From positions 295,515-359,514 of the forward strand of contig JBMNHZ010000009.1 of NCBI GenBank assembly GCA_050950645.1: 64,000 bases of DNA, written 5' to 3'. Below are positions 32,081 to 52,871 of this stretch, in pieces. Each line of letters opens with the position of its first letter. Positions within the stretch are counted from its first letter, which is position 1. A program made the translations under genes and the position numbers. Under the pieces are notes generated by a model. It was not told the origin of the DNA and ran no database searches. It saw only the letters and a program-made list of their open reading frames with translations. The DNA comes from Lutisporaceae bacterium. GTDB taxonomy: Bacteria > Bacillota > Clostridia > Lutisporales > Lutisporaceae.

Positions 32081-32232
32081 ATTTAATCAAAATGTCTCCT
32101 TTGTTGAATACATGGTAAAAGACAAATACTGCAATTCTTGTACTACCTATCAGACTCCAAAGTAGTAAAACGAATCCAGACAGACATTACATTCTGATGG
32201 TTTTTATTTATATTCATAGGATAACAGAAAAA

Positions 32233-32263
32233 CAGGGCATCGGAGCCGAACTCCGGTGCCCTG
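32233..32263. terminator. Bidirectional terminator at the 3' end of the symporter gene
   Basis: cagggcatcggag-ccgaa-ctccggtgccctg, with an A-run upstream and ttttg downstream. On the minus strand it is followed by tttttc. Confidence 0.65.
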
Positions 32264-32282
32264 TTTTGTTAATCATGTAAGA

Positions 32283-33680
32283 TTATATTTGTTTATCGGT
32301 CTGAACTTTGGTGGTACCACCCTGCGTCATAAGGCTGGCAATTATGTAAGCAATACCGGAAGTGATGATGGGGAACACGGTTGGAACAGGGAAGGATATG
32401 CCTGCCCAAGAAATCAGCACTGTGGAGACACCTACTATCGAAGCGGCGGTAGCGCCAATGGAATTACCCTTCTTCCAGAATATGCCGCCCACGAAAGGGA
32501 TAAAGCATGCCGCAGCTAGGAAGGAATATACGGAGTTTAGCAAGCCCAGAATGCTGGAAGAGGACAGAGCCAGAATAGTAGATACGCCCATGAAACCGAT
32601 GTTAACGCCTAGAGTTATCTTCTTCAGTTGAGCCTCATCAGGAGTCTTCTTCAGCACCCCTTGCCAGATGTCTCGGGTCAGAACGGTGGACATAGTGATC
32701 AGACCACAGTCGATGGTAGACATAACAGCAGCCAGAACGGCGGCAATGATCAGGGCGCAGACAATAGTAGGGAGCTGATTCATGATAACCATGAAGAAGG
32801 CGTCGCTGCCAGAAACGCCATACTTATAGGCACCGAAGGAGCCGATGAACGCGGGCATCAGTGCTAGGGGGATCATAACTAAGAAAGACAGATAACAGGA
32901 AATGCGGGAAGTTTTGGCGCTCTTGGCGGAGTTAATACGCTGATATGTAGGCTGGTCGGTAACCATTCCCAGTAGCAGAGGTATCATCATACCTGCAAAA
33001 CCTGCAGCTGTCATACCGCTGAAGTCCAGTGCGGAAGAAGCCAGAGAGCCAGTCTGAATAGCGGATTGCATTTCACTTACTGCACCCCTACTGATCAAGA
33101 TTACAGTGGTTAAAACCAGACCGGCGATTATGACGGCGGTTTGGATCACGGAGGTGGCAAAGGCACCCCACAGACCGGACATCTGGGAGTAGAGCAAAAC
33201 GACCACGGCGATGGAGATGGCGCCTACTGTACCGGACAGACCCATAGCCTCGAAAAGAGCTTTACCTGCCATAATCTGACCGGCGATCAAACCAATAGAG
33301 GAGATTGCCGTGCTCAGGTCGTAAATAGTACCAGGCACGGGGTTGTTGTAGCGCTTTATTGTGTAGTCAGCCAGAGACATATAGCCGCCGTTGTAAATAA
33401 AGTTGTTCAGAAAAATAGCAACCATCAGACAGCTGAGTGCGCATGCTATGCCATAAGCGCTACCCGCCATTCCGACCACCGAACCCTCTGCGGCACCGCC
33501 GACTACGAAGCCATTGCCAATCTGACCACCGATGGCGCCGCCCATTAGCAGGATAACGCCTCCGGAACGACCCATACTCAGATAACCCTCAAAGGTCTCA
33601 GAGCGATGACGACCGACCCAGCCGATGGCAACCATGGCTGCAAAGTAAATAACCAGGACAACAACGATAGTAATAATCAT
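32283..33680 (-). CDS. Sodium:solute symporter family (SSF) transporter
   Basis: Polytopic membrane protein with an SSF-like N-terminus (IYFAAMVAIGWVGRHRSETFEGYLSMGRSGG). ATG 33680 after aaaggatgg is preferred; the track ORF extends 45 codons further upstream. Confidence 0.75.
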   Translation of the reverse strand: MIITIVVVLVIYFAAMVAIGWVGRHRSETFEGYLSMGRSGGVILLMGGAIGGQIGNGFVVGGAAEGSVVGMAGSAYGIACALSCLMVAIFLNNFIYNGGYMSLADYTIKRYNNPVPGTIYDLSTAISSIGLIAGQIMAGKALFEAMGLSGTVGAISIAVVVLLYSQMSGLWGAFATSVIQTAVIIAGLVLTTVILISRGAVSEMQSAIQTGSLASSALDFSGMTAAGFAGMMIPLLLGMVTDQPTYQRINSAKSAKTSRISCYLSFLVMIPLALMPAFIGSFGAYKYGVSGSDAFFMVIMNQLPTIVCALIIAAVLAAVMSTIDCGLITMSTVLTRDIWQGVLKKTPDEAQLKKITLGVNIGFMGVSTILALSSSSILGLLNSVYSFLAAACFIPFVGGIFWKKGNSIGATAASIVGVSTVLISWAGISFPVPTVFPIITSGIAYIIASLMTQGGTTKVQTDKQI

Positions 33681-33971
33681 AAATACCATCCTTTCTACTG
33701 CGCTGCAATAAGCAGCGCGGCATTTCTTTGTAGTGAGATTGTGTGGAACATAGATATTTCTGTCGTGTGCCTCAATAAAACGATACGGTTCATACCTTGG
33801 AACAGGTGAGATCATAATTATTATAACTCATCAGTTACGAAAAGTGATTTCAAATTTCTGATGAGATATTTCGAAATTCTGATTTGCAATTGTAATAATG
33901 TGTATTGTTTATTACAATAAGAAGTGTGATAATGACAAACACTGTGTTTTAGGAGAAAGGACGGCGAATTT

Positions 33972-35270
33972 ATGACAGTAAACGAAGACTTTATCCGAAA
34001 TATGGAGCAGAATCTTTCCTACTGGAAAGCACATATTTCAGTTCACGATATGTTGACCAGCGAACTTGCTTACAGCTTGATTTACGACAATATCCGGTCG
34101 GACAAGGTGAGCGAGGCAATGGGGACGGTGGGCCTTGATGTGCTGCCAAATCGTTTTTTTCTAATCCAGGTAGATGATTATATGAATTATTCCAGTAATC
34201 TGCATATAACCCAGGAATTTTTTCAAAAACCGGTCCTGGTCGATATGCTGCGTACCTGCATGAAAATGATTAAATTGAAGGGATTTGTCGCCAACCTGAT
34301 CGGAATGGATAGAATCATTTGTTTTTTGTGCTTTGAGGAGCATGAGACGGAAGACCCCGGTGTATATTTGCGCTCTGTTGCAGAGACATTTAAAGAATAT
34401 GTACGGCATCGAAGTACATACACTATTTCTGTGTGTATAAGTCGACGCTGCACGCAACTGGATCATTACGCCAAGCTATACCCTCTCATGGATTTAGCCC
34501 TTAGCAAAAGTTATTTTTCTAATAAGGAGTTCAGTATACTGTTGGACGAAATGGAGGAGCAAAAGGAACTCAAAACAGTGTATGTGGATTTAAACGCGCG
34601 TTATCCCGAATTTATTGCCTCCATAGCACGGCGCAATCGGGAGCAGTTTGAACAAGTTTTGCAGGAAATGATTCAGGCGCTACTGGAAACTCAATCACGT
34701 CCCAGACGAGTGCGTATGGAAATTATCCGCCTACTCCAACGGGTAGAAGATTACTGTATTCGGTGCGGGGTTCCGGAAAAACAGATGCGTGACTATAATG
34801 AAACCGCAATGAATAAGGTACTTTCCTGCAGTTTTATTGCTGATACCAGAAATTATCTTGAGGAATATTACGAACAGGTGACCGTCATGCTCGAACGATA
34901 CAGCTATGAATGGGAATACTCCTTTAAATCATTAGTTGAAGAATATATATCCGTACACTTTCATGAAAAGATTCGCTTGGGAACATTGGCATATATTATG
35001 GGCTACAGTGAAGGCCACTTTGCTCGAATTTTTCGAAAACAATTTGGAATAACCTTTGTACAATACCTGACACAGTATAGAATCAACCAGAGCAAACGAC
35101 TATTGATCGAGACTCACATTCCTGTGGAACAGATTGCTTTTCAGGTTGGAATCGGTAGCTATAGTTATTTTTGCACTTGCTTCAAGAATGCTTGTGGTTT
35201 AACACCAAGCAAGTACCGAAAACATTACTATCACAGAGCAGGGAAACAGAACATCAAAATTATGAAATAA
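33972..35270 (+). CDS. AraC-family transcriptional regulator
   Basis: 432 aa with a C-terminal double HTH (LAYIMGYSEGHFARIFRKQFGITFVQYLTQYRINQSKRLL...IAFQVGIGSYSYFCTCFKNACGLTPSKYR). Divergent from the symporter gene. Confidence 0.8.
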   Translation: MTVNEDFIRNMEQNLSYWKAHISVHDMLTSELAYSLIYDNIRSDKVSEAMGTVGLDVLPNRFFLIQVDDYMNYSSNLHITQEFFQKPVLVDMLRTCMKMIKLKGFVANLIGMDRIICFLCFEEHETEDPGVYLRSVAETFKEYVRHRSTYTISVCISRRCTQLDHYAKLYPLMDLALSKSYFSNKEFSILLDEMEEQKELKTVYVDLNARYPEFIASIARRNREQFEQVLQEMIQALLETQSRPRRVRMEIIRLLQRVEDYCIRCGVPEKQMRDYNETAMNKVLSCSFIADTRNYLEEYYEQVTVMLERYSYEWEYSFKSLVEEYISVHFHEKIRLGTLAYIMGYSEGHFARIFRKQFGITFVQYLTQYRINQSKRLLIETHIPVEQIAFQVGIGSYSYFCTCFKNACGLTPSKYRKHYYHRAGKQNIKIMK

Positions 35271-35439
35271 ATAATCAAGATACCAAATATATCTCATGTA
35301 AATAATATGATAGAATAGCATCGTGAAACAATTAGATTCAGTCAGGAACAGGTGAAAAATCACAATCAACCGTCAGTTCGCAGGGCGGCAAGTGGAACAG
35401 TCGTCTATTTTGCGAGTGACAAAATGTTAGGAGGCAATT

Positions 35440-37401
35440 ATGTCAATCTATCCCCATTTGTTCGCTCCATTGCACATCCGAAATTTCTACATCAAAAACC
35501 GCATTGAATCAGCACCGATTTCACACAGTGGCGGTGTTCCCTTTTACACTCGTGAGGCTCAGGAGATGTACAGTACCTTTGCGAAAGGTGGTGTTGGCAT
35601 TGTGACCCTGGGAGAGGCCGGAGTCCACAGTCAGACGGGACATGCCCATCCCACCATGCCTCATCTAGATGATACTACCGTTTTGCCCGGCTTAATCCAG
35701 ACTGTGGATGCCATCCATAAATGGGGCGCACTGGCATCCATTGAGTTGACCCACTCGGGTAACCGCGCTAAAGGTTCTCTCCTGACCGAGGGCGGCTTCG
35801 TAATGGGTCCTTGCGCCATGGAGACCAACCTCTACGGAGATCCTGTTGTGGAAATGGACGAGGACATGATGAATATGGTGGCGGACGCTTTTGCTGAGGC
35901 CGCCTATCTGGCCAAGTTTGCCGGCTGCGATATGATTAACATTCATGGTGGGCACGGCTGGATCATCAGCCAGTTCCTATCGGATTTGGATAATCATCGT
36001 ACCGATCAGTATGGAGGCTGCATTGAGAATAAGGCCCGATTCCCTCTGATGATTGTGGACCGCATCCGTGAAAAATGCGGAAACGACCTAATCATCGAGT
36101 TTCGCCTCAGTGCAGAAGAGGGCATTCCGGGTGGTATCACCATTGACGAGACGGTAGAGTTTGCCAAGCTGTTGGATGGAAAGGTGGATATTATCCATGT
36201 ATCAGCTGCCACCTTCCATGAAACTGCCACCGCTTCTCGCATGTTCCCCACAGTGTTTTATCCCAGAGGCTGTAATGTAGAAAACGCAGCAAAGATCAAA
36301 GCCGTGACGAAAAAGTCCTATGTTTCCGTGGTAGGGGGTCTGAATGATCCCGACCATATGGAGTCTATCCTCGCGGACGGCAAGACCGATATGGTCGTTG
36401 TGGGTCGTCAGATGATGGCCGACCCCAACTGGCCTAACAAGGCAAAAAAAGGCAAGGCTGACGAGATTATTAAATGTATTCGTTGCGAAACCTGTATAAG
36501 CGCCGGATTCATTCCCCATGTTCCCTTTTCTTCCGGTGTGTTGCGCTGCTCTGTTAACCCCTCATGGGGGCGCGAGTACGAAAACACCCGCAAAGAAGAT
36601 AAGCCTGAGCAGCTGAAAAAGGTTCTGGTTGCCGGCGGCGGCCCAAGTGGCATGGAGGCCGCTATTACTGCAGCTCGCCGAGGACACAACGTTATTCTAT
36701 GCGAGAAGAGCGACCATCTGGCTGCCAATCTGGATTATGCTAAACAGATTTCCTTCAAGCAGGATATAGTGGCATTTCTAAAGTCCATGGAAGTCAACGT
36801 ACGTCGCACCCCCAATCTGGAGGTTCGCCTGAACACTGAGGTTACCGAAGAACTGATTCAAATCGAGGGACCGGATGTTCTGATTGTGGCTTGTGGTGCA
36901 GAGCCTATACTGCCTCCGATTCCCGGCTTGGATCAGCCAATCGTTCACCATATTACCGATTTGTATAAGAAGAATGTGAAAGCTGGACAGAAAGTCGTAA
37001 TCATCGGCGGCGGCCTGGCAGGCTGTGAAGAGGGTCTAAGTCTTGCCTGGGAGGGCAAGGATGTCTCCATCGTGGAGATGAAACCCGAGCTGGCAAAGGA
37101 TGCCCCATATATCCATTGGAAGCATTTGCTGAGCAAGTTAAGCGAGTCTGTGACTTCCTATTGCTCGGCTAAAGTACAGGCCATCGAGGCGGAGGGTGTT
37201 CGCATTGTGGATGCTGGCGGTAATGAACGCAAGCTGGAAGCTGATACCGTTTTCATTGCCACCGGTATGCGTGCCACCTCGGAGCGTTATGATACTTGGC
37301 ATGACCTGGTGGAGGATATAATATTCGTGGGTGACTGTCGTCGCAGCTCCAAGATCTTGGATGCTATGCGTACCGGCTACTGTGCAGGTATGACTATCTG
37401 A
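35440..37401 (+). CDS. Enoate-reductase-type flavoenzyme (OYE-like FMN barrel + 4Fe-4S + FAD/NAD(P) domain; 2-enoate reductase / BaiCD / FadH family)
   Basis: 653 aa. N-terminal Oxidored_FMN-like barrel (INIHGGHGWIISQFLSDLDNHRTDQYGG), Cys cluster CIRCETC...C, and dinucleotide fold VLVAGGGPSGMEAA. Confidence 0.75.
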   Translation: MSIYPHLFAPLHIRNFYIKNRIESAPISHSGGVPFYTREAQEMYSTFAKGGVGIVTLGEAGVHSQTGHAHPTMPHLDDTTVLPGLIQTVDAIHKWGALASIELTHSGNRAKGSLLTEGGFVMGPCAMETNLYGDPVVEMDEDMMNMVADAFAEAAYLAKFAGCDMINIHGGHGWIISQFLSDLDNHRTDQYGGCIENKARFPLMIVDRIREKCGNDLIIEFRLSAEEGIPGGITIDETVEFAKLLDGKVDIIHVSAATFHETATASRMFPTVFYPRGCNVENAAKIKAVTKKSYVSVVGGLNDPDHMESILADGKTDMVVVGRQMMADPNWPNKAKKGKADEIIKCIRCETCISAGFIPHVPFSSGVLRCSVNPSWGREYENTRKEDKPEQLKKVLVAGGGPSGMEAAITAARRGHNVILCEKSDHLAANLDYAKQISFKQDIVAFLKSMEVNVRRTPNLEVRLNTEVTEELIQIEGPDVLIVACGAEPILPPIPGLDQPIVHHITDLYKKNVKAGQKVVIIGGGLAGCEEGLSLAWEGKDVSIVEMKPELAKDAPYIHWKHLLSKLSESVTSYCSAKVQAIEAEGVRIVDAGGNERKLEADTVFIATGMRATSERYDTWHDLVEDIIFVGDCRRSSKILDAMRTGYCAGMTI

Positions 37402-37545
37402 TAATATGTAAAGCATGGTTAAGGAAAAACTACACAACGTAAATGGTTGCGCTTACTCACCCAGAACATAACAAAAATACGATTTATATACCATTATGGA
37501 AATAGGATCGGAAAAAGAACAAAGAAACAGTAGGGAGGATCAGAT

Positions 37546-39075
37546 ATGAACAAAGTAATTATTACAGGGCAAAATCTGACGCTAGAAGAACTAGTAGCTG
37601 TTTCTAGGAATGATGTACAGGTTGAACTGTCTGAAGAAGCAAAGGAAAATATCTCTGAATCCAGAAAAGTTGTCGAAGACCTGGTTGAAAGCAATGCAGT
37701 CGTTTACGGCATCACGACCGGTTTTGGAAAATTTAGCGATGTTTCTATTTCTCAGGATGAATGCAAGAAACTCCAGAGGAATCTGATTATTACACATTCC
37801 GTTGGCGCAGGTGAACCTTTTTCGCGGGATGTCGTAAGAGGTATCATGCTTCTGAGGATAAACAGCCTTGCAAAGGGATTTTCGGGTGTCAGATTGGAAG
37901 TTGTTGAAACTTTAATTGCATTTCTGAATAAAGGCGTCACCCCGCAGATACCGCAACAGGGTTCATTGGGCGCAAGCGGCGATCTGACTCCTCTATCGCA
38001 TATGGTTCTGCCGATGATTGGTCTGGGCGAAGCAGAGTATAAAGGCACTGTAATGAGTGGTGCGGAGGCAATGGAAAGGGCTGGCATTCCGGTTATTGAA
38101 TTGGTTGCAAAAGAGGGCCTTGCCCTGATTAATGGTACACAAGCTATGACCTCTGTTGGAGCATTGACTCTATACGACGCATTAGAATTGCTAAAGGTTG
38201 CAGACATTGCAGCGGCACTCAGCTTTGAAGCAAATCATGGTGTTATTGACGCTCTTGATGAAAGAGTGCATGCCATCAGACCCCATGCTGGTCAAATGGA
38301 TACAGCAAAGCTGCTTGCCCGATTGCTTAAGAACAGCAGGAATGTTACCAAGCAGGGTGAAATTAGAGTGCAGGATGGCTATTCACTGCGTTGTGTCCCC
38401 CAGGTTCATGGTGCCAGCAAGGATATCATGGATTATGTTAAATCGAAAGTCGAAATTGAAATCAATTCAGTTACGGATAACCCCATTATATTTAAGGAAA
38501 CCAAAGAGGGTATTTCCGGCGGTAACTTCCATGGTCAACCGATGGCACTGTGCTTTGATTTTCTTGGAATTGCGCTGTCAGAACTTGCCAATATTTCTGA
38601 AAGACGGATTGAAAGAATGGTCAACCCGGCAATCGGAGGATTCCCTGCATTTCTGGTCAAAAATGGAGGTCTGAATTCCGGCTTTATGATTGTACAATAC
38701 TCTGCAGCCGCGCTTGTTTCTGAAAATAAGGTTTTGACACATCCTGCAAGTGTTGACAGCATTCCGTCTTCTGCAAATCAGGAAGACCATGTCAGCATGG
38801 GTACAATTGCCGCAAGAAAGGCGAAAGATATTATGAAGAATGTCAGACGTGTACTTGCTATGGAACTGATGTGTGCATGCCAGGCGATTGATCTTGGTGG
38901 AAACAAGGGACTCGGCGACGGCACAAAGAAGGCATACGATGTAATTAGAAATGTCTGTGCAACACTGGAAGAAGATCGTCCGCTATACGGTGACATTAAC
39001 CAGTGCGAAGCTACTATCGTTGATGGAAGCTTGATTGCAGCTGTTTTGAATGAGATCTCTGAGACGCAGTTCTAA
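37546..39075 (+). CDS. hutH: Histidine ammonia-lyase (MIO-dependent aromatic lyase family)
   Basis: 509 aa. YGITTGFGKF, the MIO-forming triad in GSLGASGDLTPLSH, and a HAL-type His in LQRNLIITHSVGAG. Confidence 0.8.
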   Translation: MNKVIITGQNLTLEELVAVSRNDVQVELSEEAKENISESRKVVEDLVESNAVVYGITTGFGKFSDVSISQDECKKLQRNLIITHSVGAGEPFSRDVVRGIMLLRINSLAKGFSGVRLEVVETLIAFLNKGVTPQIPQQGSLGASGDLTPLSHMVLPMIGLGEAEYKGTVMSGAEAMERAGIPVIELVAKEGLALINGTQAMTSVGALTLYDALELLKVADIAAALSFEANHGVIDALDERVHAIRPHAGQMDTAKLLARLLKNSRNVTKQGEIRVQDGYSLRCVPQVHGASKDIMDYVKSKVEIEINSVTDNPIIFKETKEGISGGNFHGQPMALCFDFLGIALSELANISERRIERMVNPAIGGFPAFLVKNGGLNSGFMIVQYSAAALVSENKVLTHPASVDSIPSSANQEDHVSMGTIAARKAKDIMKNVRRVLAMELMCACQAIDLGGNKGLGDGTKKAYDVIRNVCATLEEDRPLYGDINQCEATIVDGSLIAAVLNEISETQF

Positions 39076-39102
39076 ATTCTAATATTTAAAATACGATATA
39101 AG

Positions 39103-39143
39103 GAGTATGCTCATCATGTAATTGTGATGAGCATACTCTGTTT
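39103..39143 (+). terminator. Terminator after hutH
   Basis: 14-bp perfect stem gagtatgctcatca / tgatgagcatactc followed by tgttt. Confidence 0.6.
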
Positions 39144-39311
39144 AAATTGACGTATGTAACGGTCAAAATTCCGAATTCCGACATTTGGACAATGAACACT
39201 ATTGCGCTTGTATACTCGTGGGAAATAACTGAAAAATATTGTATTTGAATTGAAACATTTAGTATTACTGTGAAAGTGGAAGATTAAAAGTTAGTTCAGT
39301 TTGAAGATAAA

Positions 39312-39347
39312 CATGACTTTTCATAAGAAAGAAAGTCGTGTTTTTTC
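39312..39347 (+). terminator. Orphan terminator-like hairpin between the catabolic cassette and the Tad locus
   Basis: catgacttt-(loop)-aaagtcgtg (9 bp, one G-U) followed by tttttt. No ORF ends nearby. Confidence 0.4.
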
Positions 39348-39472
39348 ATTTGTATAATAAAACATACCAAATATCACATTATTATACAAATATTACAAAA
39401 TTATGCTACAATTTAACAAAATGAAGAAAAATATACAGAAAATGTAATTAATATAATATCAATGCTTGGGAG

Positions 39473-40015
39473 TTGATTGCAATAGCAATTAAGCTGATTA
39501 TAATTTCAATGCTTCTGCTGTTTGCACTGGTATCCGACCTGAGGACTTACAGCATTAAAAACTACATTACTTATGGTTTTATGCTGATAGGATTAACATT
39601 AAATTTCGCAATGGAAGGTTTAAGAGGACTGGCATTTTCACTTCAGGGCATAATAATTCCTGCTTTATTTCTATTTATCTTATATATTATGAGGATTATA
39701 GGAGCGGGGGATGTCAAACTTTTATGCGCTGTAGGGGCAGTAATGGGTGGGGTTTTTTCATTATATGCCGCAATATGCTCTTTCATCTGCGGAGGCTTTA
39801 TTGCTTCAAGCCTCATGCTGGCAAGAAATAATGCCTCAGAGAGATTTAATCATTTTATTCTGTATCTCACAAGCTGTTTTCTGACTATGAAAATTCTTCA
39901 ATATACAGACTTTGGGGACAGAAAGGATGGAGGAAAGTTTCACTTCTCATTAGCTATAGCATCAGGAACTATTGCAGCTGTAATTATTAAGAGTTTTGGA
40001 ATGTGGGGGGCATAA
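39473..40015 (+). CDS. Prepilin peptidase, A24 family (TadV/CpaA-like), copy 1
   Basis: Polytopic 180-aa protein with the two Asp motifs (VSDLRTYSIKN and IIGAGDVKLL). The TTG start is uncertain. Confidence 0.75.
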   Translation: MIAIAIKLIIISMLLLFALVSDLRTYSIKNYITYGFMLIGLTLNFAMEGLRGLAFSLQGIIIPALFLFILYIMRIIGAGDVKLLCAVGAVMGGVFSLYAAICSFICGGFIASSLMLARNNASERFNHFILYLTSCFLTMKILQYTDFGDRKDGGKFHFSLAIASGTIAAVIIKSFGMWGA

Positions 40016-40017
40016 AC

Positions 40018-41118: not shown

Positions 41119-41128
41119 GGTGGGATAA

Positions 41129-44066: not shown

Positions 44067-44279
44067 ATGTTAAAACAAATAAAGGGGCTTATATCAGAGG
44101 AGGAGGGCATAAGCACGGTTGAGATTGTGGTAATTATTGCAATTCTTGTAGGAATAGCATTACTCTTTAGAAAGTCGATAACTGCTTATGTGCAGAAGGT
44201 TATAAGTAATTTTATTGATACTGCTCCTACTGTCGAAAACTTGGAGGTTGATATGGAAGCACCTTTGCCGAAGGATTAA
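44067..44279 (+). CDS. flp: Flp-type type IVb prepilin
   Basis: 70 aa: short charged leader MLKQIKGLISEEEG, then ISTVEIVVIIAILVGIALLF (G|xxTVE Flp-like processing site followed by a hydrophobic helix). ATG 44067 follows gggaggt. Confidence 0.75.
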   Translation: MLKQIKGLISEEEGISTVEIVVIIAILVGIALLFRKSITAYVQKVISNFIDTAPTVENLEVDMEAPLPKD

Positions 44280-44294
44280 TACCTTGTAAGTGGA

Positions 44295-44957: not shown

Positions 44958-44985
44958 AATTACCGATTATCAAGGAGAGAGGCGA

Positions 44986-46998
44986 ATGTACCAAAATAAC
45001 GGCTGCATAAAAAAAGAGAGAGGAGCAATTACTGTTTTTCTGGCACTTATTTTCATGTCTCTGATACTTTTTGCAGGAACAGTAATTGATATTGTAAGAA
45101 TTACTGCTGCAGACCGGAGGGTCCAAAGCGCCTTAAATACCTCAGCCAGGTCCGTATTGGCGGAATATGAAAGTGAGCTTATAGGCAATTATGGAATATA
45201 TGGGGTTAATGCTGCAGGAGCAAATGTAAAAGAAGATTTTTACAGATACATGAGTGTGAATCTAAAGGAACGGCATGAGAACATAAACTTTATAGAAATT
45301 GACATAGATTTTGAAGATATTCAAATACAAGGTATGGACAGCCTGCTGAAGCATGAGGCATTTAAGAGGCAGGTGCAGGAATACATGAAGTACAGAACAC
45401 CGATTAAATCGGCTGATACTCTGATTGAGCAGCTGCAGAATATTAAACTGGATAAGAAGATTAATTTTATAAATAGTGAGAAGATAACCAGGGATAAGGC
45501 AAGAGAGCTGAGAGCAAAGGTAAATGAGGCAAATTCAAAGCTTACAGCCATTAAAAAAAAGCTCACAAATTTAAGTGCAAAAAAACTTGAGGATTTAAGG
45601 AATGAGCTTTTAGAAGCTTTGGAAATCAATCGCTCGATTTACGACGGGAATAATAAAGGCCTTCTGGTTGATTATATTCAAAGCAGGGATGATACAAATG
45701 TTAAGGCTAAAAAAGGCGAATTCATCGGAAATCAGTCCCGGGAGTTTGCCGGCATAATGGGAAACAGCGAAAATATTGCTCCCGGGATTCAAAGATATTT
45801 AGAGGAGATAAATAAAACACTCCTGAAGGTAAAACCGCTTCAGAAGGAACTCGATATTATGAAAGAAAGCCTTGAAAGCCTGAGGGAGGAGATGGATAAA
45901 TTAAATGATGACGAAATAAATGAAGTCAGAGACGATATTGATAAGGTTAAAGATAAAATCATGCAGCTTGAATCACAAATTGATGAGGAAATATCAGGGT
46001 TGAAAGTGAAGCTTGGAGAGACTGCTCTTGAGGGTTATTTCCTGGAGCCGGAGATTGTGGAAATCGACAAAAAGGCGGAGGATCTGAAAGAATTTATTGG
46101 CAAGACAAAGGAAGACATTGAGAAAGCATTGCTTAGGAAACTTGAAAAGGATTGGCTGATAGCCCCTGAAGAATTTGAAGACAGCAGTATTATTACTGGC
46201 GATAACCTTGAAGAAATGGATGAAAATGCATATTTCAGCTTATCAATTCAGGAGGAAGAAGCTGAGAAAAGAAATAATGAAATAGTAAATATAGCGGAGA
46301 GACTTTCGGATGCAGTTAAAGATACTGCTTCAAGTGCATTGGAGAAGATAAATACCATTGAATATGTGATGGACAAGTATACCTTCCTGACCTCCAGGAC
46401 AAAAAGGAATCATTTCTTCAACAAGGGTGAAGTGGAGTACATTATCAGCGGGCCGGATATTAATGAAGAATACAGCCAAATAAAGAATACTGAGTATTAT
46501 ATAGTGACAAAGGTGCTGCTTCAGGTTTGGGCATTGAGATTTGCATTAAATACGATAGATGCTTTTATCACAAGCACTGTAGTATTTCCTCCCCAAAGAC
46601 TTGCTTTTGCTCTTGCTGAAGGTGCACTGGACTCAAGTCTCGATATGTTTAATTTGCTTAATGGCGAGTCTGTGCCAATATGTCCGAAGAGCTTTACGGC
46701 AATTAAACTAAAGTATTCGGATCACTTAAGAATTCTGCTTTTGATGAAGCCTGAGGAAGAAATCCTGAGAAAGGCGAGACAGCTTATACAAGTAAATATT
46801 AAGCAGGTTATAGATGCGGAGACAGGGCTTCCAAGGTCGGATTTCAGATTAGGAGATTATAGTACTGTTATCTTTGCCTCTGTAAAGGCAAAGGTAAACC
46901 TTTTCTTTCTTCCTCTTTTGAAGGTTGACAGGCTGCTGCCCGGCAGCTTTGAAAACGGAAGGTATATAATACGAAAACAAATATATGTTGGCTATTAG
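44986..46998 (+). CDS. Large TadG-like pilus-associated protein with a long central coiled coil
   Basis: 670 aa. N-terminus KKERG|AITVFLALIFMSLILFAGTVIDIVRITAADRRVQSALN (Tad N-terminal domain pattern), an approximately 300-aa K/E/L-rich helical middle, and a hydrophobic C-terminal region. Confidence 0.65.
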   Translation: MYQNNGCIKKERGAITVFLALIFMSLILFAGTVIDIVRITAADRRVQSALNTSARSVLAEYESELIGNYGIYGVNAAGANVKEDFYRYMSVNLKERHENINFIEIDIDFEDIQIQGMDSLLKHEAFKRQVQEYMKYRTPIKSADTLIEQLQNIKLDKKINFINSEKITRDKARELRAKVNEANSKLTAIKKKLTNLSAKKLEDLRNELLEALEINRSIYDGNNKGLLVDYIQSRDDTNVKAKKGEFIGNQSREFAGIMGNSENIAPGIQRYLEEINKTLLKVKPLQKELDIMKESLESLREEMDKLNDDEINEVRDDIDKVKDKIMQLESQIDEEISGLKVKLGETALEGYFLEPEIVEIDKKAEDLKEFIGKTKEDIEKALLRKLEKDWLIAPEEFEDSSIITGDNLEEMDENAYFSLSIQEEEAEKRNNEIVNIAERLSDAVKDTASSALEKINTIEYVMDKYTFLTSRTKRNHFFNKGEVEYIISGPDINEEYSQIKNTEYYIVTKVLLQVWALRFALNTIDAFITSTVVFPPQRLAFALAEGALDSSLDMFNLLNGESVPICPKSFTAIKLKYSDHLRILLLMKPEEEILRKARQLIQVNIKQVIDAETGLPRSDFRLGDYSTVIFASVKAKVNLFFLPLLKVDRLLPGSFENGRYIIRKQIYVGY

Positions 46999-47003
46999 GG
47001 TGG

Positions 47004-47951
47004 TTGAAATTGCATAGATTTTGTAAGAAGCTGAACTCCAGAGGTTCGATAACAGTTGAGGCTTGTGTTGTATTTCCCATTTTTATAAGCGTATTTTTTC
47101 TGCTGCTTTTTCTTATCAAGTTTACATGCACAGGTATGGCGCTTGATTATGCTGTAAATGAAGCAGCCAAGGAAATAGCTGCAGCAGCATATCCCATATC
47201 CTTTGTAAATGAACTGGAGGATGAAAAGCTGCAGGAGTATGGGAATACAAAAATACCTACACTGGAGGAAGAGCTGGAAAAGCTTGTTAGCGGAATAGCA
47301 GGAACCAGTTTCGATAATATTCTGGGCGTCATTATATCGGAGAACCTTAAAGAGACGGATTTTACTGATGCAGTACAGGATGTATTAAAGGACTACAGCA
47401 GAGGAATTATCGGAAATATTGTTGATGTGATGGCCCCTGCATATTGGGATATGAAATCCGCCGTCAAGTATTCCGCTGCCGAAGCGATTATTAAGAAACA
47501 CCTGGAAAGCCCGCTGATCAATCGAGAAAATATAAAGCTGCAGCTTGTTGAATTTCCCCAGGGCAGAGAAGAATACAGCGTAAGGTCATCAAGTGCGATA
47601 TATGGTAAGCTGGGACTGATTCCGGAAAAGGATTTCAGCAGAGACGACATTGTGCTGCAGCTAAGTTACGATTATAAGGTGAATCTTCCATTCCTGGGGC
47701 CTCTTAATATACGAATGATTCATACCGCTGTGGAAAGGGCATGGATCAACGGAAGCTTCGGGATACTGACAGCTGACGACGAAGGCTTTAATTTGGAATC
47801 GGAAGGCAGAATTGTATATATCACAAGGACGGGTATCCGCTATCATGAAGAGGACTGCAGGTACCTCAGGAAAAGTAAAATCCCGATTATAATTGAAGAG
47901 GCTGAAGGGTCAGGCTATACTCCATGCAAGGTTTGCAAACCGCTGGGCTAG
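47004..47951 (+). CDS. TadE-like pseudopilin with a C-terminal His/Cys zinc-ribbon-like motif
   Basis: N-terminus NSRG|SITVEACVVFPIFISVFFLLLFLI. C-terminus IVYITRTGIRYHEEDCRYL...GYTPCKVCKP. The start is TTG 47004 or TTG 47010. Confidence 0.6.
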   Translation: MKLHRFCKKLNSRGSITVEACVVFPIFISVFFLLLFLIKFTCTGMALDYAVNEAAKEIAAAAYPISFVNELEDEKLQEYGNTKIPTLEEELEKLVSGIAGTSFDNILGVIISENLKETDFTDAVQDVLKDYSRGIIGNIVDVMAPAYWDMKSAVKYSAAEAIIKKHLESPLINRENIKLQLVEFPQGREEYSVRSSSAIYGKLGLIPEKDFSRDDIVLQLSYDYKVNLPFLGPLNIRMIHTAVERAWINGSFGILTADDEGFNLESEGRIVYITRTGIRYHEEDCRYLRKSKIPIIIEEAEGSGYTPCKVCKPLG

Positions 47952-47980
47952 GCTGCAAAATTACTAACAGGGAGGATATT

Positions 47981-48433
47981 ATGAGGTATCATTTACTGAC
48001 AGATGATGCAAGATTTTTCCCATATATAACAGTTGTAGTATTGCTTGCTGCAGCTGCAATTATCGATATCAGGGAGAGAAGAATACCGGATAAGCTGGTG
48101 CTTGCAGGTACTGCCGGAGGATTGGCCTTTGTTTTGATTAACCCACAAATAGATTTGCTTAACAGCCTTATGGGCGGTGTAACAGCGGGGTTGGTGCTGC
48201 TTCTTGTTTATTACATTACAAAGGGTGGCATCGGACTTGGAGACGTAAAGCTTTTTGGCTGCTCAGGAATTTATCTGGGTTTCGAAAACACTGTCTCCGC
48301 AATGTTGATTTCTGCAGTTCTAGCTGGATTATTCAGTCTGGCACTTATATGTATAAACCGTAACAACAAGAAACGTGAAATACCTTATGCACCCTTTATA
48401 TTGGCAGGTGTACTTACGGTTATAATATTCTAA
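47981..48433 (+). CDS. Prepilin peptidase, A24 family, copy 2
   Basis: Asp motifs IDIRERRIPD and GIGLGDVKLF. ATG 47981 follows gggagga; the track ORF starts upstream at 47924 and overlaps the previous gene. Confidence 0.75.
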   Translation: MRYHLLTDDARFFPYITVVVLLAAAAIIDIRERRIPDKLVLAGTAGGLAFVLINPQIDLLNSLMGGVTAGLVLLLVYYITKGGIGLGDVKLFGCSGIYLGFENTVSAMLISAVLAGLFSLALICINRNNKKREIPYAPFILAGVLTVIIF

Positions 48434-48457
48434 TTAGTATGCAGTGGAGGGGTCATT

Positions 48458-49795
48458 GTGGAAAATATAGGATTAGATTTTGAATACGGTTATGATAATG
48501 ATGCAGCCGGTAGTTGTCTGGTTCTTAAGATTAATAATGATACAAAGCTGCTGAATCATCAGGTAGAGATTTTATGTCAGAATCCCAATTCTTCTTTTGT
48601 TCCATTTCATATAAAGCGAGAAAATGAAAATGTTTTTATCTGTTATAATATAACCTCCAAAATATCATTATCTCAGTATATTGAAAGAAAAAGCCTAAAG
48701 AAGAAGGAGCTTCTGGATTTGCTCAGGAACATTGTAAAAAATCTGATGCTTCATGGCAATTACTTATTGGATCTTTCAGGCTTCATCATCCATTCGGATT
48801 TTATATTTGTTAACCCTGCGACAGCGGAAGTTTCGCTTTTATATGTACCTGTTCCCTGCAGCAGGAATTCAAAGGAGATATTAAGATCCTTTTTTAAAGA
48901 TATTGTGGTTAATTCATCCAGTAACGATGACGATGCAAGGGATAATTACCTGCAAAGGATATTGAATTATTTAAAATCGGATACGTTCAGCCTCATTGAA
49001 TTTAACAGATTGATTGTAGATTTGAGAAACAGTGGAGAATTATGCGAATATGAAAAGAGGACAGCTGATAGAGAAGCAGCCGCTGAAATGGATACCCCCT
49101 GCGGCAAGAGTCTTGAGGAAAGGGCTTATGCAGAGGTTGGAAAGAGCAAGAGTATCAGAAGCATAATTTTACTGCAGCCATTCTTTTTAATAGCTGTAGT
49201 TATTGCGTACTTATTAATGGCAGTGAGAGGAACGGGGGATATTATATCTATTTCGGCAGTGGTGCTTATTGCAGCCGCATTGGATATCCTTGCAATTAAA
49301 AAGATAATGGATTGGGAATGGAAGAGGGTACCGGTAGAAGATACTCATCTTACAGCACAAGATAAAGCAAAGGGCGGCACGGGCTGCAGGGACAAAAGTA
49401 TCAGAAGCAGGTATAAACAGGTGATTTCATTACCCGATGTAGTGAAAGCCAATGATACAATTTTAATCTCCGAAGTTCCGAAGGATTGCAATCCATATCT
49501 GGAGAGCATAGGGTCCAATAGAGTTGAAAGAATAGTAATTAATAAGAATAAATTTTTAATAGGCAGATTGGGCAGTATGGTCGACCATATTATTCAGGGA
49601 AATACAATAGGAAAGCTTCATGCAGAAATTAAAGTAAATGAAGGGCTTTTTTACATAAAGGACCTTAACTCGAAAAACGGAACTTATGTGAACGGCGTAA
49701 GAATTTCCGGCAATAATGAATGTGAAATAAAGGAAAATGATATAATAAGGTTTTCAAACTATGAATATGTTTTCAGAAATCAGAGAGCTGAATAA
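48458..49795 (+). CDS. Membrane protein with an uncharacterised N-terminal domain, two TM helices and a C-terminal FHA domain
   Basis: 445 aa. TM pair IILLQPFFLIAVVIAYLLMAV / ISISAVVLIAAALDILAI. C-terminal FHA pattern FLIGR...HAEI...YIKDLNSKNGTYVNG..I.....I..NDIIRF. GTG start 5 nt after tggagggg. Confidence 0.75.
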   Translation: MENIGLDFEYGYDNDAAGSCLVLKINNDTKLLNHQVEILCQNPNSSFVPFHIKRENENVFICYNITSKISLSQYIERKSLKKKELLDLLRNIVKNLMLHGNYLLDLSGFIIHSDFIFVNPATAEVSLLYVPVPCSRNSKEILRSFFKDIVVNSSSNDDDARDNYLQRILNYLKSDTFSLIEFNRLIVDLRNSGELCEYEKRTADREAAAEMDTPCGKSLEERAYAEVGKSKSIRSIILLQPFFLIAVVIAYLLMAVRGTGDIISISAVVLIAAALDILAIKKIMDWEWKRVPVEDTHLTAQDKAKGGTGCRDKSIRSRYKQVISLPDVVKANDTILISEVPKDCNPYLESIGSNRVERIVINKNKFLIGRLGSMVDHIIQGNTIGKLHAEIKVNEGLFYIKDLNSKNGTYVNGVRISGNNECEIKENDIIRFSNYEYVFRNQRAE

Positions 49796-49823
49796 GAATT
49801 AAACATGATAGGGGGTGCCCCTG

Positions 49824-50039
49824 ATGAAGCTTCATTTTATATACATATTTATTGGAATTTCAACTCTTACTCTAAACCTTATACTTACTCTCCATATAAT
49901 CAGGAAACATAAAAATGAGGGCTGCCAAAGGAATTGGGATTATGAACAAGTGATAACCTTCAGGCTGTCCGGAAAAGAAAGCATTGAGGGTATTACTACC
50001 GCAGCAGCGGCCTGTGATGATACGGTGCCTCTGGAATAA
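49824..50039 (+). CDS. Small hypothetical membrane protein
   Basis: One hydrophobic helix (LHFIYIFIGISTLTLNLILTL). Weak evidence; accepted only because it sits between two co-directional genes. Confidence 0.3.
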   Translation: MKLHFIYIFIGISTLTLNLILTLHIIRKHKNEGCQRNWDYEQVITFRLSGKESIEGITTAAAACDDTVPLE

Positions 50040-50065
50040 TAATGCCGTGCAGTGGAGGGTGAAGA

Positions 50066-50959
50066 ATGCAAATCGGGAGTATATTAAACGAAAAGTATCG
50101 GATTGACAAATTTTTAGGCAAAGGTGGGACAGCTTCTGTTTATTTATGTACCAATATTGAAATTGGAAACAGGTGGGCTTTGAAGCATATTCCGCCGGAC
50201 AAAACAAATGAAATAGCAATGTCGGAGATTGAAATACTTAAGAGACTGTACCATCCCAGCCTGCCAAGGATTGTTGATGTATTCCGCAATAAACAGGGTA
50301 TTTATATTGTCGAAAGCAATATAGAGGGTATCCCCATGGACAGGATGCTGAAAAAGCATGGCAGCTTTGGACTTGAGAAAGTCACAGACTGGTTTATGGA
50401 GCTTTGTGATATATTGAAATACCTGCACAGCGTCAAGCCAAGGCCTATTATATATAGGGATATGAAGCCGTCAAATATAATACTTACACAGGGCGGCAGA
50501 CTGGTACTGGTTGATTTCGGGGTATCCCAGGAGTACTTTGAGTATGAATTAAGGGACAGTGTTCTTGCGGGTACGAGTGCGTATGCAGCACCGGAGCAGC
50601 TGATAAAAGGGGGAAAGACAGATCAGAGGACAGATATTTACAACCTGGGTGCAACAGTGTATCAAATGCTGTATGGCAGGCTGGCAGGCGGCACAAATGA
50701 CAAAGCTGGTTCTATCAAAGGCAAGGCAGCAGCGAAGATGGGCAGTATAATTTCCAAGTGTATGGAGAACAGGCCGGAGGACAGATACCAGAGGGTAGAA
50801 GATATACAGAAAGAGCTGGAGGCTGTAAAGAGTATGCTGGCAGCGGGCAAGGTAAGGCAGGGAATTGTTTTTAAGCTTGAGATGGCTTCAATAGCAGCAT
50901 TGTCGGCAGTCTCATATGCTGCTGCGGTACTGGGCGCATTGTATTCGACGTCGAAATAA
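50066..50959 (+). CDS. Hanks-type Ser/Thr protein kinase with a C-terminal membrane anchor
   Basis: GKGGTASVY...WALKHI (ATP-binding Lys), catalytic loop YRDMKPSNIIL, DFGVS, APE. The C-terminal hydrophobic tail is MASIAALSAVSYAAAVLGALY. No PASTA repeats. Confidence 0.85.
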   Translation: MQIGSILNEKYRIDKFLGKGGTASVYLCTNIEIGNRWALKHIPPDKTNEIAMSEIEILKRLYHPSLPRIVDVFRNKQGIYIVESNIEGIPMDRMLKKHGSFGLEKVTDWFMELCDILKYLHSVKPRPIIYRDMKPSNIILTQGGRLVLVDFGVSQEYFEYELRDSVLAGTSAYAAPEQLIKGGKTDQRTDIYNLGATVYQMLYGRLAGGTNDKAGSIKGKAAAKMGSIISKCMENRPEDRYQRVEDIQKELEAVKSMLAAGKVRQGIVFKLEMASIAALSAVSYAAAVLGALYSTSK

Positions 50960-51113
50960 TAATATGGTATGTGCTAAATTTACCTCCTCGTACCCCGGAA
51001 CCCCTTAGCTTCGCAGCCCCGCCCTAACTCTCGTGTCTCGTGTCTAAAATACCTATTGACAAATCACAAAATTAGAAAATTAGCAAAATGCATATCAATT
51101 TATGGGCATACCA

Positions 51114-52305
51114 ATTTTAGGTAAATTGTAAAATGAAGTGTCGCGATAGATAACAAAAGTGTCCCATAGGGACCAACTCAGCTATAATGTTAAGTGACCA
51201 AACCCAACAAAAAGGAGAGAGGTATATGGGACACTTACATTGTAGCAAGATTGAGCATAAAAATAAACACTTAAATTACAGGGAACGGCTGAGAATAGAA
51301 ATAATGCTTAAGGAAGGTGCCGGCACAAAGGAAATTAGTGAAATAATTGGTTGCAGCCAGAGGACTATACAAAGAGAGCGAAAACGCGGTTTAATAAAAC
51401 AAATTAATTCGAACTTGGAATATTACCAGGTATATGACGCAGATTATGCCCAGAACGACTATATAGCAAAACATGAATGTAAGGGGCCAGGACTAAAAAT
51501 AGGGCACGATCATAAATTGTGCGAGTATATAGAAGAAAAAATCAAAGCAGGCTGGTCGCCGGACATAATTGCAAAAGAGATTAGAAAAAAGGCAGAATTC
51601 AAAGATACAAGAATATGCACAAAGACAATATACAACTATATAGATAAGAATGTTTTTCTAAATATCAGTTATAAGGATTTAATATATGGCAGGTATCGAA
51701 AGAGAACAGGTACAGGAGTAAACAGGCCATCTTACAAGAATATAAAAGGTCGTAGCATAGATGAAAGGCCATCTAGTGTTGATGAACGACAAGAAGTGGG
51801 ACATTGGGAAATGGATTTAGTGTTAGGCAAGAAAGGAGGAAGCAAAAGCGTCTTACTTACAATGACAGAACGAGTAAGCAGACGTGAAATCATTCGAAAA
51901 CTGCCTGATAAAAGCCAAGAAAGTGTAATAAAGGCGCTGGATGTAATGGAACGGCAAATGGGGCGAATTAAGTTCAAGGATACATTTAAAAGCATAACAG
52001 TTGATAATGGTTCAGAGTTTTTAAACAGTTCGGAAATGGAGAGGTCTTGCCTTGGTAAGAAAAGAACAAGAACGATGGTATTTTACGCACACCCATATAG
52101 TGCATATGAACGAGGGAGCAATGAGAATATGAACCGGATGATACGCCGCTTTATACCCAAAGGAGCAGATATTGGTAAATATAGTAAACAGGAAATAAAG
52201 CGCATCGAAAATTGGTTAAACAATTATCCAAGGAAGATCCTGGATTACTATACTCCACTTGAAGCCTATAATCAGGTTGCTTAACAGAGGCGACATTTAA
52301 TGTTG
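51114..52305 (+). mobile_element. IS30-family insertion sequence (ends uncertain by about 10 bp)
   Basis: One IS30-type transposase ORF. A 19-bp direct repeat caatttatgggcataccaa lies at 51095-51113 and 52306-52324. Inverted repeats gtaaattgtaaaatgaagtgtcgc (51121-51144) versus gcgacatttaatgttgcaatttat (52290-52313); the right one overlaps the repeat. Confidence 0.65.
51226..52284 (+). CDS. IS30-family transposase
   Basis: N-terminal HTH (ISEIIGCSQRTIQRERKRG) and a DDE core (HWEMDLV ... TVDNGSEF ... HPYSAYERGSNEN). ATG 51226 follows aaaggagaga. Confidence 0.85.
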   Translation: MGHLHCSKIEHKNKHLNYRERLRIEIMLKEGAGTKEISEIIGCSQRTIQRERKRGLIKQINSNLEYYQVYDADYAQNDYIAKHECKGPGLKIGHDHKLCEYIEEKIKAGWSPDIIAKEIRKKAEFKDTRICTKTIYNYIDKNVFLNISYKDLIYGRYRKRTGTGVNRPSYKNIKGRSIDERPSSVDERQEVGHWEMDLVLGKKGGSKSVLLTMTERVSRREIIRKLPDKSQESVIKALDVMERQMGRIKFKDTFKSITVDNGSEFLNSSEMERSCLGKKRTRTMVFYAHPYSAYERGSNENMNRMIRRFIPKGADIGKYSKQEIKRIENWLNNYPRKILDYYTPLEAYNQVA

Positions 52306-52334
52306 CAATTTATGGGCATACCAAATGGGAAGCA

Positions 52335-52808
52335 TTGAACTTAAGTGACCTTAAAGCATTAAAGAAAGTAATGAAAGAGCTTTATGATGAAACAGAGAGC
52401 GAAAGAAAACGTAAAGAGATCCGGGAGAGTTTTCTTTACTTTAAGAACAATTGGGATGGAATAGAAATCTATGAAAAAGAAAGGGAAAGTATAGTAGGAT
52501 GCAGTGCGGAAGGACATAACAGCCATATACTTGCTGATCGCATGAGCAGCAGGCCAAAGGGCTGGAGTATGGAAGGTGCAGAGAAAATGGCAAGGTTAAG
52601 GGCATTTAAAGCAAACGGCGGCAATGTATATGATTTTATGAAGGAACAGAAGAAAGAAAAGAAACTCTATGATATTACTACAAAGCTCTTAAAAGAGACA
52701 AAAAAGAAGCTCAAACAGAAAAAGACAGCCGAGATAATTGGAAACATTGAAGTCTTCAAAATAGGAAGGATAACGGGACTTTATAAGGCATTGAAAGAGC
52801 TCTGCTGA
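52335..52808 (+). pseudogene. C-terminal remnant of an ISLre2-family transposase
   Basis: The remnant stretch FLYFKNNWDGIEIYEKERESIVGCSAEGHNSHILADRMSSRPKGWSMEGAEKMARL is collinear with YSYFKENRDGLIPYQERG...GTMEHHICDIISQRMKHRKASWSIEGANNLGKL in the intact transposase at 684-2147. The roughly 300 N-terminal residues are missing. Confidence 0.6.
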
Positions 52809-52842
52809 GATATGTTGTTGATATATTTTTTATAAGTTTATG

Positions 52843-52871
52843 CTTGACAGTCATTTATTGGTATGTTAACA
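52843..52871 (+). promoter_or_regulatory. Putative rpoB promoter (-35 inside the IS remnant end)
   Basis: TTGACA (52843-48), a 17-nt spacer ending in TGt, TAACAT (52866-71), about 185 nt upstream of rpoB. Confidence 0.4.

Follow-up and report, generated by a model that had tools for sequence, protein, structure and literature searches.

The rplL-rpoB spacer of an uncultured Lutisporaceae lineage: an accessory-gene site probably built up and cut down in layers

Introduction

Escherichia coli carries an attenuator between rplL and rpoB, and in Bacillus subtilis rpoB has a separate promoter, with a methyltransferase gene lying between rplL and rpoB. More generally, chromosomal hot spots for horizontally acquired genes lie between conserved core genes. 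Here, we describe the rplL-rpoB junction of an uncultured member of the Lutisporaceae (Clostridia), contained in a stretch of 64,000 nucleotides (nt) that is referred to below as the window, in which catabolic genes, a Tad pilus locus and insertion sequence (IS) elements lie between rplL and rpoB. Insertions into the rpoBC operon cluster have been surveyed in Gammaproteobacteria and Bacilli, where gaps of <10 kb between two cluster genes were taken as insertions; one of them, event F37, is the insertion of nrdHEF between rplL and rsmC in Lactobacillaceae, and the survey describes a usual course that begins with a small insertion and ends in complete separation (PMC8046335, Brandis 2021).

The junction in the window resembles the insertions of that survey in that a few genes enter, a clade inherits them, and later events widen the gap or disconnect the cluster. 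According to the definition used there (PMC8046335), insertions are genes between adjacent members of the rpoBC operon cluster that are shared by a clade and whose site is uninterrupted in outgroups, and this is what we found. The disconnection has its parallel as well, since rplL and rpoB are apparently unlinked in another genus of the same order (g2, genome G013) and are unlinked in a member of another family (G028). Unlike the cases in the survey, the spacer measures 12-30 kb, belongs to an uncultured clostridial order, holds a whole pilus operon, and shows repeated turnover within one genus.

As in other chromosomal hot spots, the site is flanked by core genes and carries different cargo in related species; unlike them, its two flanks rank among the most strongly expressed and best conserved operons, and the site has neither a tRNA gene nor a recognizable att site. 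Similar to E. coli and B. subtilis, a terminator follows rplL, and a stem with a U-rich tract in the rpoB leader could attenuate transcription. The differences are a strong consensus rpoB promoter that is conserved across the order, and a leader that belongs to no Rfam family.

The pilus operon itself has close counterparts in the Tad loci of Acetivibrio saccincola and Pseudobacteroides cellulosolvens, which have the same gene set and order, from the TadZ-like gene to DUF6382+FHA, and share with the window a CpaF-type ATPase gene, two T2SSF genes, Flp1-like, TadE-like and DUF5702/TadG-like genes, and an A24 peptidase gene. In these two species, the locus lies elsewhere in the genome and combines the FHA protein with a PP2C phosphatase, whereas in the window it is combined with a Hanks-type kinase and occupies the rplL-rpoB site. 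DUF6382-FHA proteins are also known from the vicinity of type VII secretion variants and PPM phosphatases (PMC11217815).

The type of event is already known, and current understanding is not overturned; what is new is the lineage, a cargo of greater size, and layers that are documented with unusual completeness. The case traces base by base how a highly conserved junction was opened and then reused for landing and deletion, and it illustrates that a large heterogeneous spacer beside IS elements need not be a recent island, as most of it is inherited here. Annotators of this uncultured digester lineage gain the true borders of the catabolic cassette, the native rpoBC promoter, and a leader that is absent from Rfam.

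Results

A short ancestral junction and a long spacer in the window

The window is part of a metagenome-assembled genome (MAG; G000) of a genus that we designate g1. In this genome, rplL (31650-32033, +; Pfam Ribosomal_L12 and L12_N) is the last gene of rplKAJL, and upstream of it lies an L10 leader at 30943-31063 (Rfam RF00557, 68 bits), the sole match in an Rfam scan of 27-54 kb. The coding sequence (CDS) of rpoB (53058-57098, +) starts with an ATG at 53058, is preceded by the Shine-Dalgarno sequence AAGGGGTGA at 53041, and is followed by rpoC. The spacer of 21,024 bp between rplL and rpoB contains 19 open reading frames (ORFs), 17 of at least 150 amino acids (aa) and two small ones, a 75-aa Flp pilin and a 71-aa ORF. 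They comprise catabolic genes (an SSF symporter gene on the minus strand, an AraC regulator, a reductase with Oxidored_FMN and Pyr_redox_2 domains, and an aromatic amino acid lyase), thirteen genes of a Tad-type set, including the gene for a DUF6382+FHA protein, the 71-aa ORF, and a Hanks-type kinase gene at the end, and, as IS content, an IS30-type transposase gene and a UPF0236 fragment. The original prediction, which was made from the letters of the window, had described a conserved junction split by about 20.7 kb of accessory DNA of three kinds (catabolic, Tad pilus, and IS30/ISLre2). This observation is confirmed by the coordinates and by Pfam; the terminator behind rplL, given there as a 12-bp stem, is in fact a perfect stem of 15 bp.

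For comparison, we used all 43 genomes of the order to which the window belongs, which form nine genera (g1 to g9), are all uncultured, and make up both the order and the family, since the two have the same membership. In each relative, rplL and the rpoB N-terminus were located, and the DNA between or beside them was retrieved and searched with the proteins of the window. Relatives with a short junction, which the original prediction had proposed to look for, were found in the outgroup genera of the order and in other families. The distance is ~0.4-0.5 kb in g9, 0.56 kb in one g8 species (G023), 1.06 kb in g5, and 0.24-1.1 kb in five genomes from outside the family. In another g8 species (G046), the gap of 3.1 kb is free of Tad and kinase genes, and in G028 rpoB lies at least 66 kb into a contig separate from that of rplL. 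In the RpoB tree, g8 and g9 together branch first, followed by g5 and then by the clade (g3,g4),(g6,(g7,g1)), with a support of 96 in the SH-like approximate likelihood ratio test (SH-aLRT). Every genome with the Tad block or the kinase gene belongs to this clade, and g5, g8 and g9 fall outside it. The ancestral junction of the order and its neighboring families was thus short (0.24-1.1 kb), and the Tad block is derived but old, because its carriers all belong to one RpoB clade and the short junctions lie outside of it.

The borders of the younger DNA could be placed within a few bases with the help of a sister lineage (L111, a Logan contig from ERR10905742), which is 92.7-95.3% identical to the window at the nucleotide level and aligns to positions 31215-32073, 39341-50963, 51056-51101 and 52828-54383. 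Relative to L111, the window contains three inserts, at 32074-39340 (7,267 bp), 50964-51055 (92 bp) and 51102-52827 (1,726 bp), together 9,085 of the 21,024 bp. The spacer is composed as follows.

32045-32079: rplL terminator hairpin, perfect 15-bp stem with a 5-nt loop, native
32074-39340: Insert A, 7,267 bp, replaces 39 bp of L111, present in this species only
39341-50963: Tad/FHA/Ser-Thr-kinase block, 11.6 kb, with its operon at 39473-50959 (+)
50964-51055: Insert B1, 92 bp, GC-rich, absent from L111
51056-51101, +: native upstream element, TATTGACAAATCA...GCAAAATGCATA
51120-52314, +: intact IS30-family element, 1,195 bp, encoding a 365-aa transposase (51187-52284)
52325-52827, +: ISLre2/UPF0236 remnant, the 3'-terminal 503 bp, matching positions 289-394 of the 400 of the UPF0236 profile
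52844-52872, +: native rpoBC promoter, TTGACA (52844-52849), 17-nt spacer, TAACAT (52867-52872)
52880-53057, +: conserved rpoB leader, ~180 nt, with the box GGCAATATTAAAATAGGTGTGCTTTA

We consider it likely that this spacer has long been used for accessory genes and was built up and cut down in layers, and that it is not a single island. The starting point was a short junction with the rplL terminator and a dedicated rpoB promoter with its leader, as still seen in the outgroup genera. Phylogeny suggests that the ancestor of five genera then gained the kinase gene and a Tad/Flp operon ending in DUF6382-FHA, and that g1, g7 and g4 inherited this block vertically, with g3 and g6 keeping the kinase gene alone at the site and Tad-FHA elsewhere. 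A module of Fer4, aldehyde-ferredoxin-oxidoreductase, NuoE-like and NuoF-like genes, found between kinase and rpoB in g1 and g7, is the next layer, later deleted in several lineages, including that of the window. In this species alone, 7,267 bp subsequently entered between the rplL terminator and the Tad promoter. Judging from the borders of the IS elements, an ISLre2-family element would have landed immediately ahead of the -35 box that belongs to the rpoB promoter, followed by an IS30-family element beside it, after which a deletion from inside the right IS30 duplicate into the ISLre2 element would have left the last 503 bp of the latter.

The Tad/FHA/kinase block is inherited

The block contains the following features.

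39341-39472, +: conserved Tad promoter region, with TATACA-18-TGCTACAAT at 39383-39412
39473-40015, +: first A24 peptidase (Pfam PF01478)
40003-41118, +: TadZ-like protein, 371 aa (AAA_31, CbiA sub-threshold)
41129-42367, +: TadA/CpaF ATPase, T2SSE (PF00437, 3.5e-59)
42377-43132, +: TadB, T2SSF (PF00482)
43136-43999, +: TadC, T2SSF (PF00482)
44052-44279, +: Flp, Flp1-like pilin, 75 aa (PF16982, 5.2e-14)
44295-44957, +: first TadE-like protein
44986-46998, +: TadG-like protein
47004-47951, +: second TadE-like protein
47924-48433, +: second A24 peptidase (PF01478)
48458-49795, +: DUF6382+FHA protein
49824-50039, +: 71-aa ORF
50066-50959, +: Ser/Thr (Hanks-type) kinase

The core set of a Tad/Flp type IVc system, i.e., TadA ATPase, TadB, TadC, A24 peptidase and Flp pilin, is present in full. 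The TadE- and TadG-like proteins gave matches below threshold (TadE, E = 0.002-0.004; Tad PF13400, 2.8e-4; DUF5702, 4e-6), and homologues of the TadZ-like protein in other genomes gave weak TadZ-like_ARD matches. The Tad promoter region is conserved in the g1 relatives. Among windows of the same size from the genome, the block lies at the 16th percentile for GC content (39.2%) and at the 83rd percentile for tetranucleotide distance.

The block occurs at the same site and in the same order in three genera (g1, g7 and g4) and in at least 17 species. The whole arrangement from rplL through Tad, FHA and kinase to rpoB lies on one contig in G002, G004, G007 and G012 (g1), G018 (g7), G022, G042 and G043 (g4), and the sister lineage L111. 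Shorter contigs show the Tad genes right after rplL or before rpoB in G001, G003, G005, G006, G009, G010, G011 and G015. TadA identity to the window declines in parallel with RpoB identity, and the TadA tree mirrors the RpoB subclades within g1, g7 and g4, indicating vertical inheritance. In G012 and G010, the gene of the first A24 peptidase matches in two frames (L007 750-1266 and L036 16878-17383, respectively) and may be frameshifted. G013 (g2) carries a diverged Tad-FHA block directly upstream of rpoB (L110 3296-10374), and its rplL lies on a different contig with 20 kb of unrelated DNA on the 3' side, so that the two genes either have become unlinked or are separated by a very large spacer.

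Several relatives carry, between the kinase gene and rpoB, a module encoding Fer4, a 601-aa aldehyde:ferredoxin oxidoreductase, NuoE-like and NuoF-like proteins, and a 246-aa ORF. It is located directly upstream of rpoB in G001 (L032), G002 (L003), G006, G008 (L005), G010 (L107) and G018 (g7, L006), and is partial in G005. The module is absent from the site in G000, G003, G004, G007, G009, G012 and the sister lineage, and no orthologue of it was found anywhere in the G000 genome. From this distribution, it follows that several g1 species and g7 had the module at the site and that a number of lineages lost it by deletion. The content of the site has changed further in G008 (g1), in which the Tad and kinase genes are lost, ~90 bp of the Tad promoter region remain, and ~20 kb of other genes precede the oxidoreductase module. 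These begin with a defense-like island (L004 1350-10498) that encodes a KAP NTPase, a Cthe_2314-type HEPN protein, a tyrosine recombinase, a TIR/SEFIR protein, an unannotated 540-aa ORF and a HATPase_c_3 protein, followed by two-component system and ABC-transporter genes. G010 has a further 5.4 kb of unannotated DNA after the kinase gene, and G007 has small ORFs at the site. Within one genus, there are at least six separate changes of content at this site.

The deeper history is less uniform. In g3 (G014 and G041) and g6 (G017), the kinase gene stands alone between rplL and rpoB (L009, L041 and L008, respectively), and the Tad-FHA clusters are located off-site (L113-L116), with no kinase gene beside them and with no flanks in common between g3 and g6. 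We prefer a Tad operon that was ancestrally on-site and moved out twice, leaving the kinase gene behind, because the genera have their on-site junctions in common but not their off-site ones. As the kinase gene stays on-site where Tad-FHA lies elsewhere, the kinase may not be dedicated to the pilus.

Several points speak against the layered history outlined above. The relatives are mostly fragmented MAGs, and the joint between the IS30 and ISLre2 elements (52314-52325) occurs in no independent assembly, since short-read contigs break in the repeats. Examination of the ends of the 7.3-kb cassette yielded no nameable mechanism of insertion, and the view that rpoBC transcription most likely still starts at the native promoter is drawn from conservation only. 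With respect to the Tad genes, a maximum-likelihood tree of TadA and TadB departs from the species tree in that the g3 and g6 clusters, both off-site, come together outside those located on-site (SH-aLRT 85-86), and parsimony is tied between an on-site ancestral Tad operon that left twice (g3 and g6) and a kinase gene that came first, with Tad entering twice.

The latter possibility, in which the slot that rplL and the kinase gene enclose received the Tad operon afterwards and repeatedly, either by separate insertions in g4 and in g7 plus g1 or by homologous recombination between genera via the conserved rplL and rpoB flanks, draws its strength from these two results and from the lone kinase gene of g3 and g6 with Tad-FHA elsewhere. 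Even so, we regard it as unlikely. It requires two entries of one 12-gene block into a single slot, both with identical orientation, and the dissimilar flanks of the g3 and g6 off-site clusters fit poorly with a retained ancestral off-site position. In addition, approximately unbiased (AU) tests did not reject the placements of the off-site clusters according to the species tree (p = 0.28 and 0.31), and the Tad tree of the on-site carriers follows RpoB.

A different reading takes as its starting point that each of the clade's five genera has the kinase gene on-site, including those with Tad elsewhere (g3 and g6). The spacer could then be a maintained bay for accessory genes with the kinase gene, rather than the pilus operon, as its fixed resident, and the accumulation of IS elements could change rpoBC expression in this species. 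If true, this would fit a kinase that is functionally tied to the adjoining transcription and translation genes, and the IS elements that part the native upstream element at 51056-51101 from the rpoB core promoter would alter rpoBC expression. We give this combination a rather small chance.

Far less probable than either is that the entire 20.7 kb constitutes one recent composite genomic island foreign to the lineage, which is how the original prediction had read it. The heterogeneous content, the IS elements at one edge and the short junction of the outgroups would agree with such an island, but the Tad, FHA and kinase genes are syntenic on-site in three genera and at least 17 species, the identities of the Tad proteins fall with that of RpoB, their composition is host-like, and L111 has the Tad block without cassette or IS elements. 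Absence from the same site in close relatives holds for the three inserts only and not for 39341-50963. That interpretation is partly supported: the junction is split, its content is of composite nature and includes some foreign DNA of recent arrival, whereas the 11.6-kb Tad/FHA/kinase block, with the same genes, site, order and host-like composition in g1, g7 and g4, is old and inherited. In the proposed check by windowed GC and tetranucleotide profiles, the cassette is atypical but not extreme, and the Tad block is host-like.

Insert A joins two unrelated pieces

The 7,267-bp insert between the rplL terminator and the Tad promoter region contains the following genes.

32283-33815, -: SSF sodium:solute symporter, piece A1 (PF00474)
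33972-35270, +: AraC-type regulator, piece A1 (HTH_18, HTH_AraC)
35440-37401, +: ene-reductase of the 2,4-dienoyl-CoA/enoate reductase type, piece A1 (Oxidored_FMN + Pyr_redox_2)
37474-39079 (CDS 37546-39075), +: histidine ammonia-lyase (HAL), piece A2 (Lyase_aromatic, 6.9e-202)

Insert A is absent from G001, G002, G004, G005, G006, G007, G009, G010, G011, G012 and L111, and no relative has the cassette; in the relatives, rplL and the Tad genes are separated by a clean spacer of 190-370 bp. Compared to genome windows of the same size, the insert is at the 96th percentile for tetranucleotide distance. Its GC content had been called foreign, and it is indeed raised, albeit only mildly (45.4% versus 41.0% for the genome, 93rd percentile). 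Neither repeats nor a target duplication were found where it begins and ends, and it contains no integrase or transposase gene, from which illegitimate or flank-mediated recombination is inferred. No copy of the insert exists elsewhere in the genome, the sole match being a 64%-identical hutH paralogue on contig C16.

The ene-reductase combines an FMN domain with an FAD/NAD domain, and its best matches in the PDB are 6qkg (NCR) and 1ps9. Relatives at 72-80% aa identity are scattered over Clostridia, with one in a Synergistaceae MAG, which is matched by the reductase alone. The symporter is 62-76% identical at the aa level to neighbors of the reductase in loci of Clostridium symbiosum, Blautia and Oscillospiraceae. 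The complete trio of symporter, regulator and reductase is found elsewhere at 62-80% aa identity (~68-73% nt identity for reductase and symporter), namely in C. symbiosum, C. transplantifaecale, Blautia MAGs, Oscillospiraceae and Anaerobutyricum, with the AraC gene syntenic in L013-L028. Across 17 loci whose reductase is 70-80% identical to that of the window, no lyase was located beside it.

The best PDB matches of the lyase are HALs (1e-124 to 1e-118). The ASG motif is present, and in the alignment with 6v6h the lyase shows GSLGASGDLTPL, THS and QEDHVSMG; we take the Ala-Ser-Gly motif of the 4-methylideneimidazole-5-one (MIO) group, the His at the S-H switch, and QEDHVS to be diagnostic for HAL. 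The nearest relative (85% nt identity over 37474-39079, 91% aa identity) lies on metagenome contigs in an unrelated context. Insert A is thus a join of two unrelated pieces, the trio (A1) and the HAL gene (A2), and the pairing of HAL with an ene-reductase was found in this species only. The HAL gene of the cassette is a second one, as C16 already carries hutH, along with an FTCD_C gene and an amidohydrolase gene that is probably hutI; hutU is located on C1. A possible role of the cassette enzymes would be the reduction of urocanate to imidazole propionate.

Deletions do occur at this site, as shown by the oxidoreductase module and by the missing Tad genes in G008, and one could imagine that the genus had the cassette ancestrally and that every sampled relative has since lost it. 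This is highly improbable, as it would require losses on several branches, each leaving a clean rplL-Tad spacer of 190-370 bp, and it would leave unaccounted for the atypical composition and the nearest relatives of both halves, which are located in other lineages and other contexts.

IS elements and a short insert next to rpoB

On the rpoB side of the block, Insert B1 has related stretches of 37-60 bp elsewhere in the genome, on contigs C10, C1 and C9. Among the inserts, only the one next to rpoB consists of IS elements. The native upstream element at 51056-51101 adjoins the rpoB promoter in relatives, and in the window it lies 1.7 kb away from it.

The IS30-type transposase has the Pfam domains HTH_38 and rve, and at least four full copies of the element are present in the genome, with 98-99.7% identity. 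The terminal 30 nt form an inverted repeat (20 of 30 positions matching). In all of this, i.e., transposase domains, terminal inverted repeats and several near-identical copies, the element conforms to the IS30 family. For this family, a target duplication of 2-3 bp is typical. Unlike this, the duplications flanking two other copies in the genome (C9:91559-92753 and C15:35324-36517) measure 15 and 16 bp, so this element does not show the short duplication. In the window, the left flank of the element is ggcataccaatttta and the right flank is ggcataccaa, a duplicate that is cut after 10 bp. This right flank joins the ISLre2 tail directly. Four longer copies, located on C9, C3 and C14, match the tail at their 3' end with 98.4-100% identity, and the tail resembles the ISLre2 family in its UPF0236 transposase end, the difference being that only the last 503 bp are present. 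In a contig of the same organism from another sample (L096), an extra IS3-like gene is present at 51051, the right edge of B1, indicating that this rpoB-proximal zone varies within the species.

The rpoB promoter is probably older than the inserts

The promoter and leader of rpoB are near-identical in most of the examined genomes of g1, g3, g4, g5, g6, g7 and g9. Most of these relatives have no IS element there, and they include genera with a junction of 0.4-1 kb. According to the original prediction, the inserted DNA cuts rpoBC off from read-through out of the rplJL promoter. This reverses cause and effect: since the same rpoB promoter and leader are shared by genera with a short junction, the inserts did not cause the uncoupling from rplJL, and the dedicated rpoB promoter is independent of the inserts and most likely older than them. 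We also considered whether the -35 box is supplied by the ISLre2 end, which would create a hybrid promoter, but rejected this, because the same TTGACA and flanks are found in relatives without IS elements.

The leader contains a putative stem of 8 bp, formed by CCAAAAGC (52980-52987) and GCTTTTGG (53011-53018), that is invariant across the order. The loop varies in sequence and length (~10 to >100 nt), and behind the stem come a U-rich tract and then the Shine-Dalgarno sequence. There is no covariation in the stem, as both arms are invariant, and the leader has no match in Rfam. It looks like a candidate attenuator or protein-binding site.

Independent contigs support the assembly

Contigs of seven other samples cover the edge between rplL and the cassette, and five of them also cover the edge between the cassette and the Tad block, with 99.86-100% identity. 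Both junctions are covered in JGI 3300062814, SRR31061296, SRR13001968, SRR31066179 and ERR12982444, and the rplL/cassette junction alone in JGI 3300060803 and ERR6196031; one independent contig of 22.9 kb runs from secE to the kinase gene. On the rpoB side, L094 reaches 125 bp into the IS30 copy and reproduces its left junction, and in L102 and L104 the ISLre2 tail joins the rpoB promoter as it does in the window. A misjoining of ribosomal, catabolic and pilus segments at repeats, for which one could cite that the genome is a MAG, that its IS copies are repeated, and that three small JGI contigs of the same organism look chimeric, is hardly credible, because independent contigs span the junctions of the cassette region in these seven and five samples, and the cassette has no repeat in common with the rest of the genome. 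The three small contigs (L093, L096 and L097) join segments of the window to distant parts of the genome, e.g., 35483 to 23980-22056; they look like either chimeric assemblies or real rearrangements in other strains.

A recurrent motif in the spacer

The motif ACATACCAAWTWT, with at most one mismatch, occurs five times, versus 0.66 expected. Three of the sites are intergenic, at 35278 upstream of the reductase gene, at 39362 upstream of the Tad promoter, and at 51106 upstream of the rpoB promoter. On the basis of this distribution, the motif may be a candidate site for a shared regulator.

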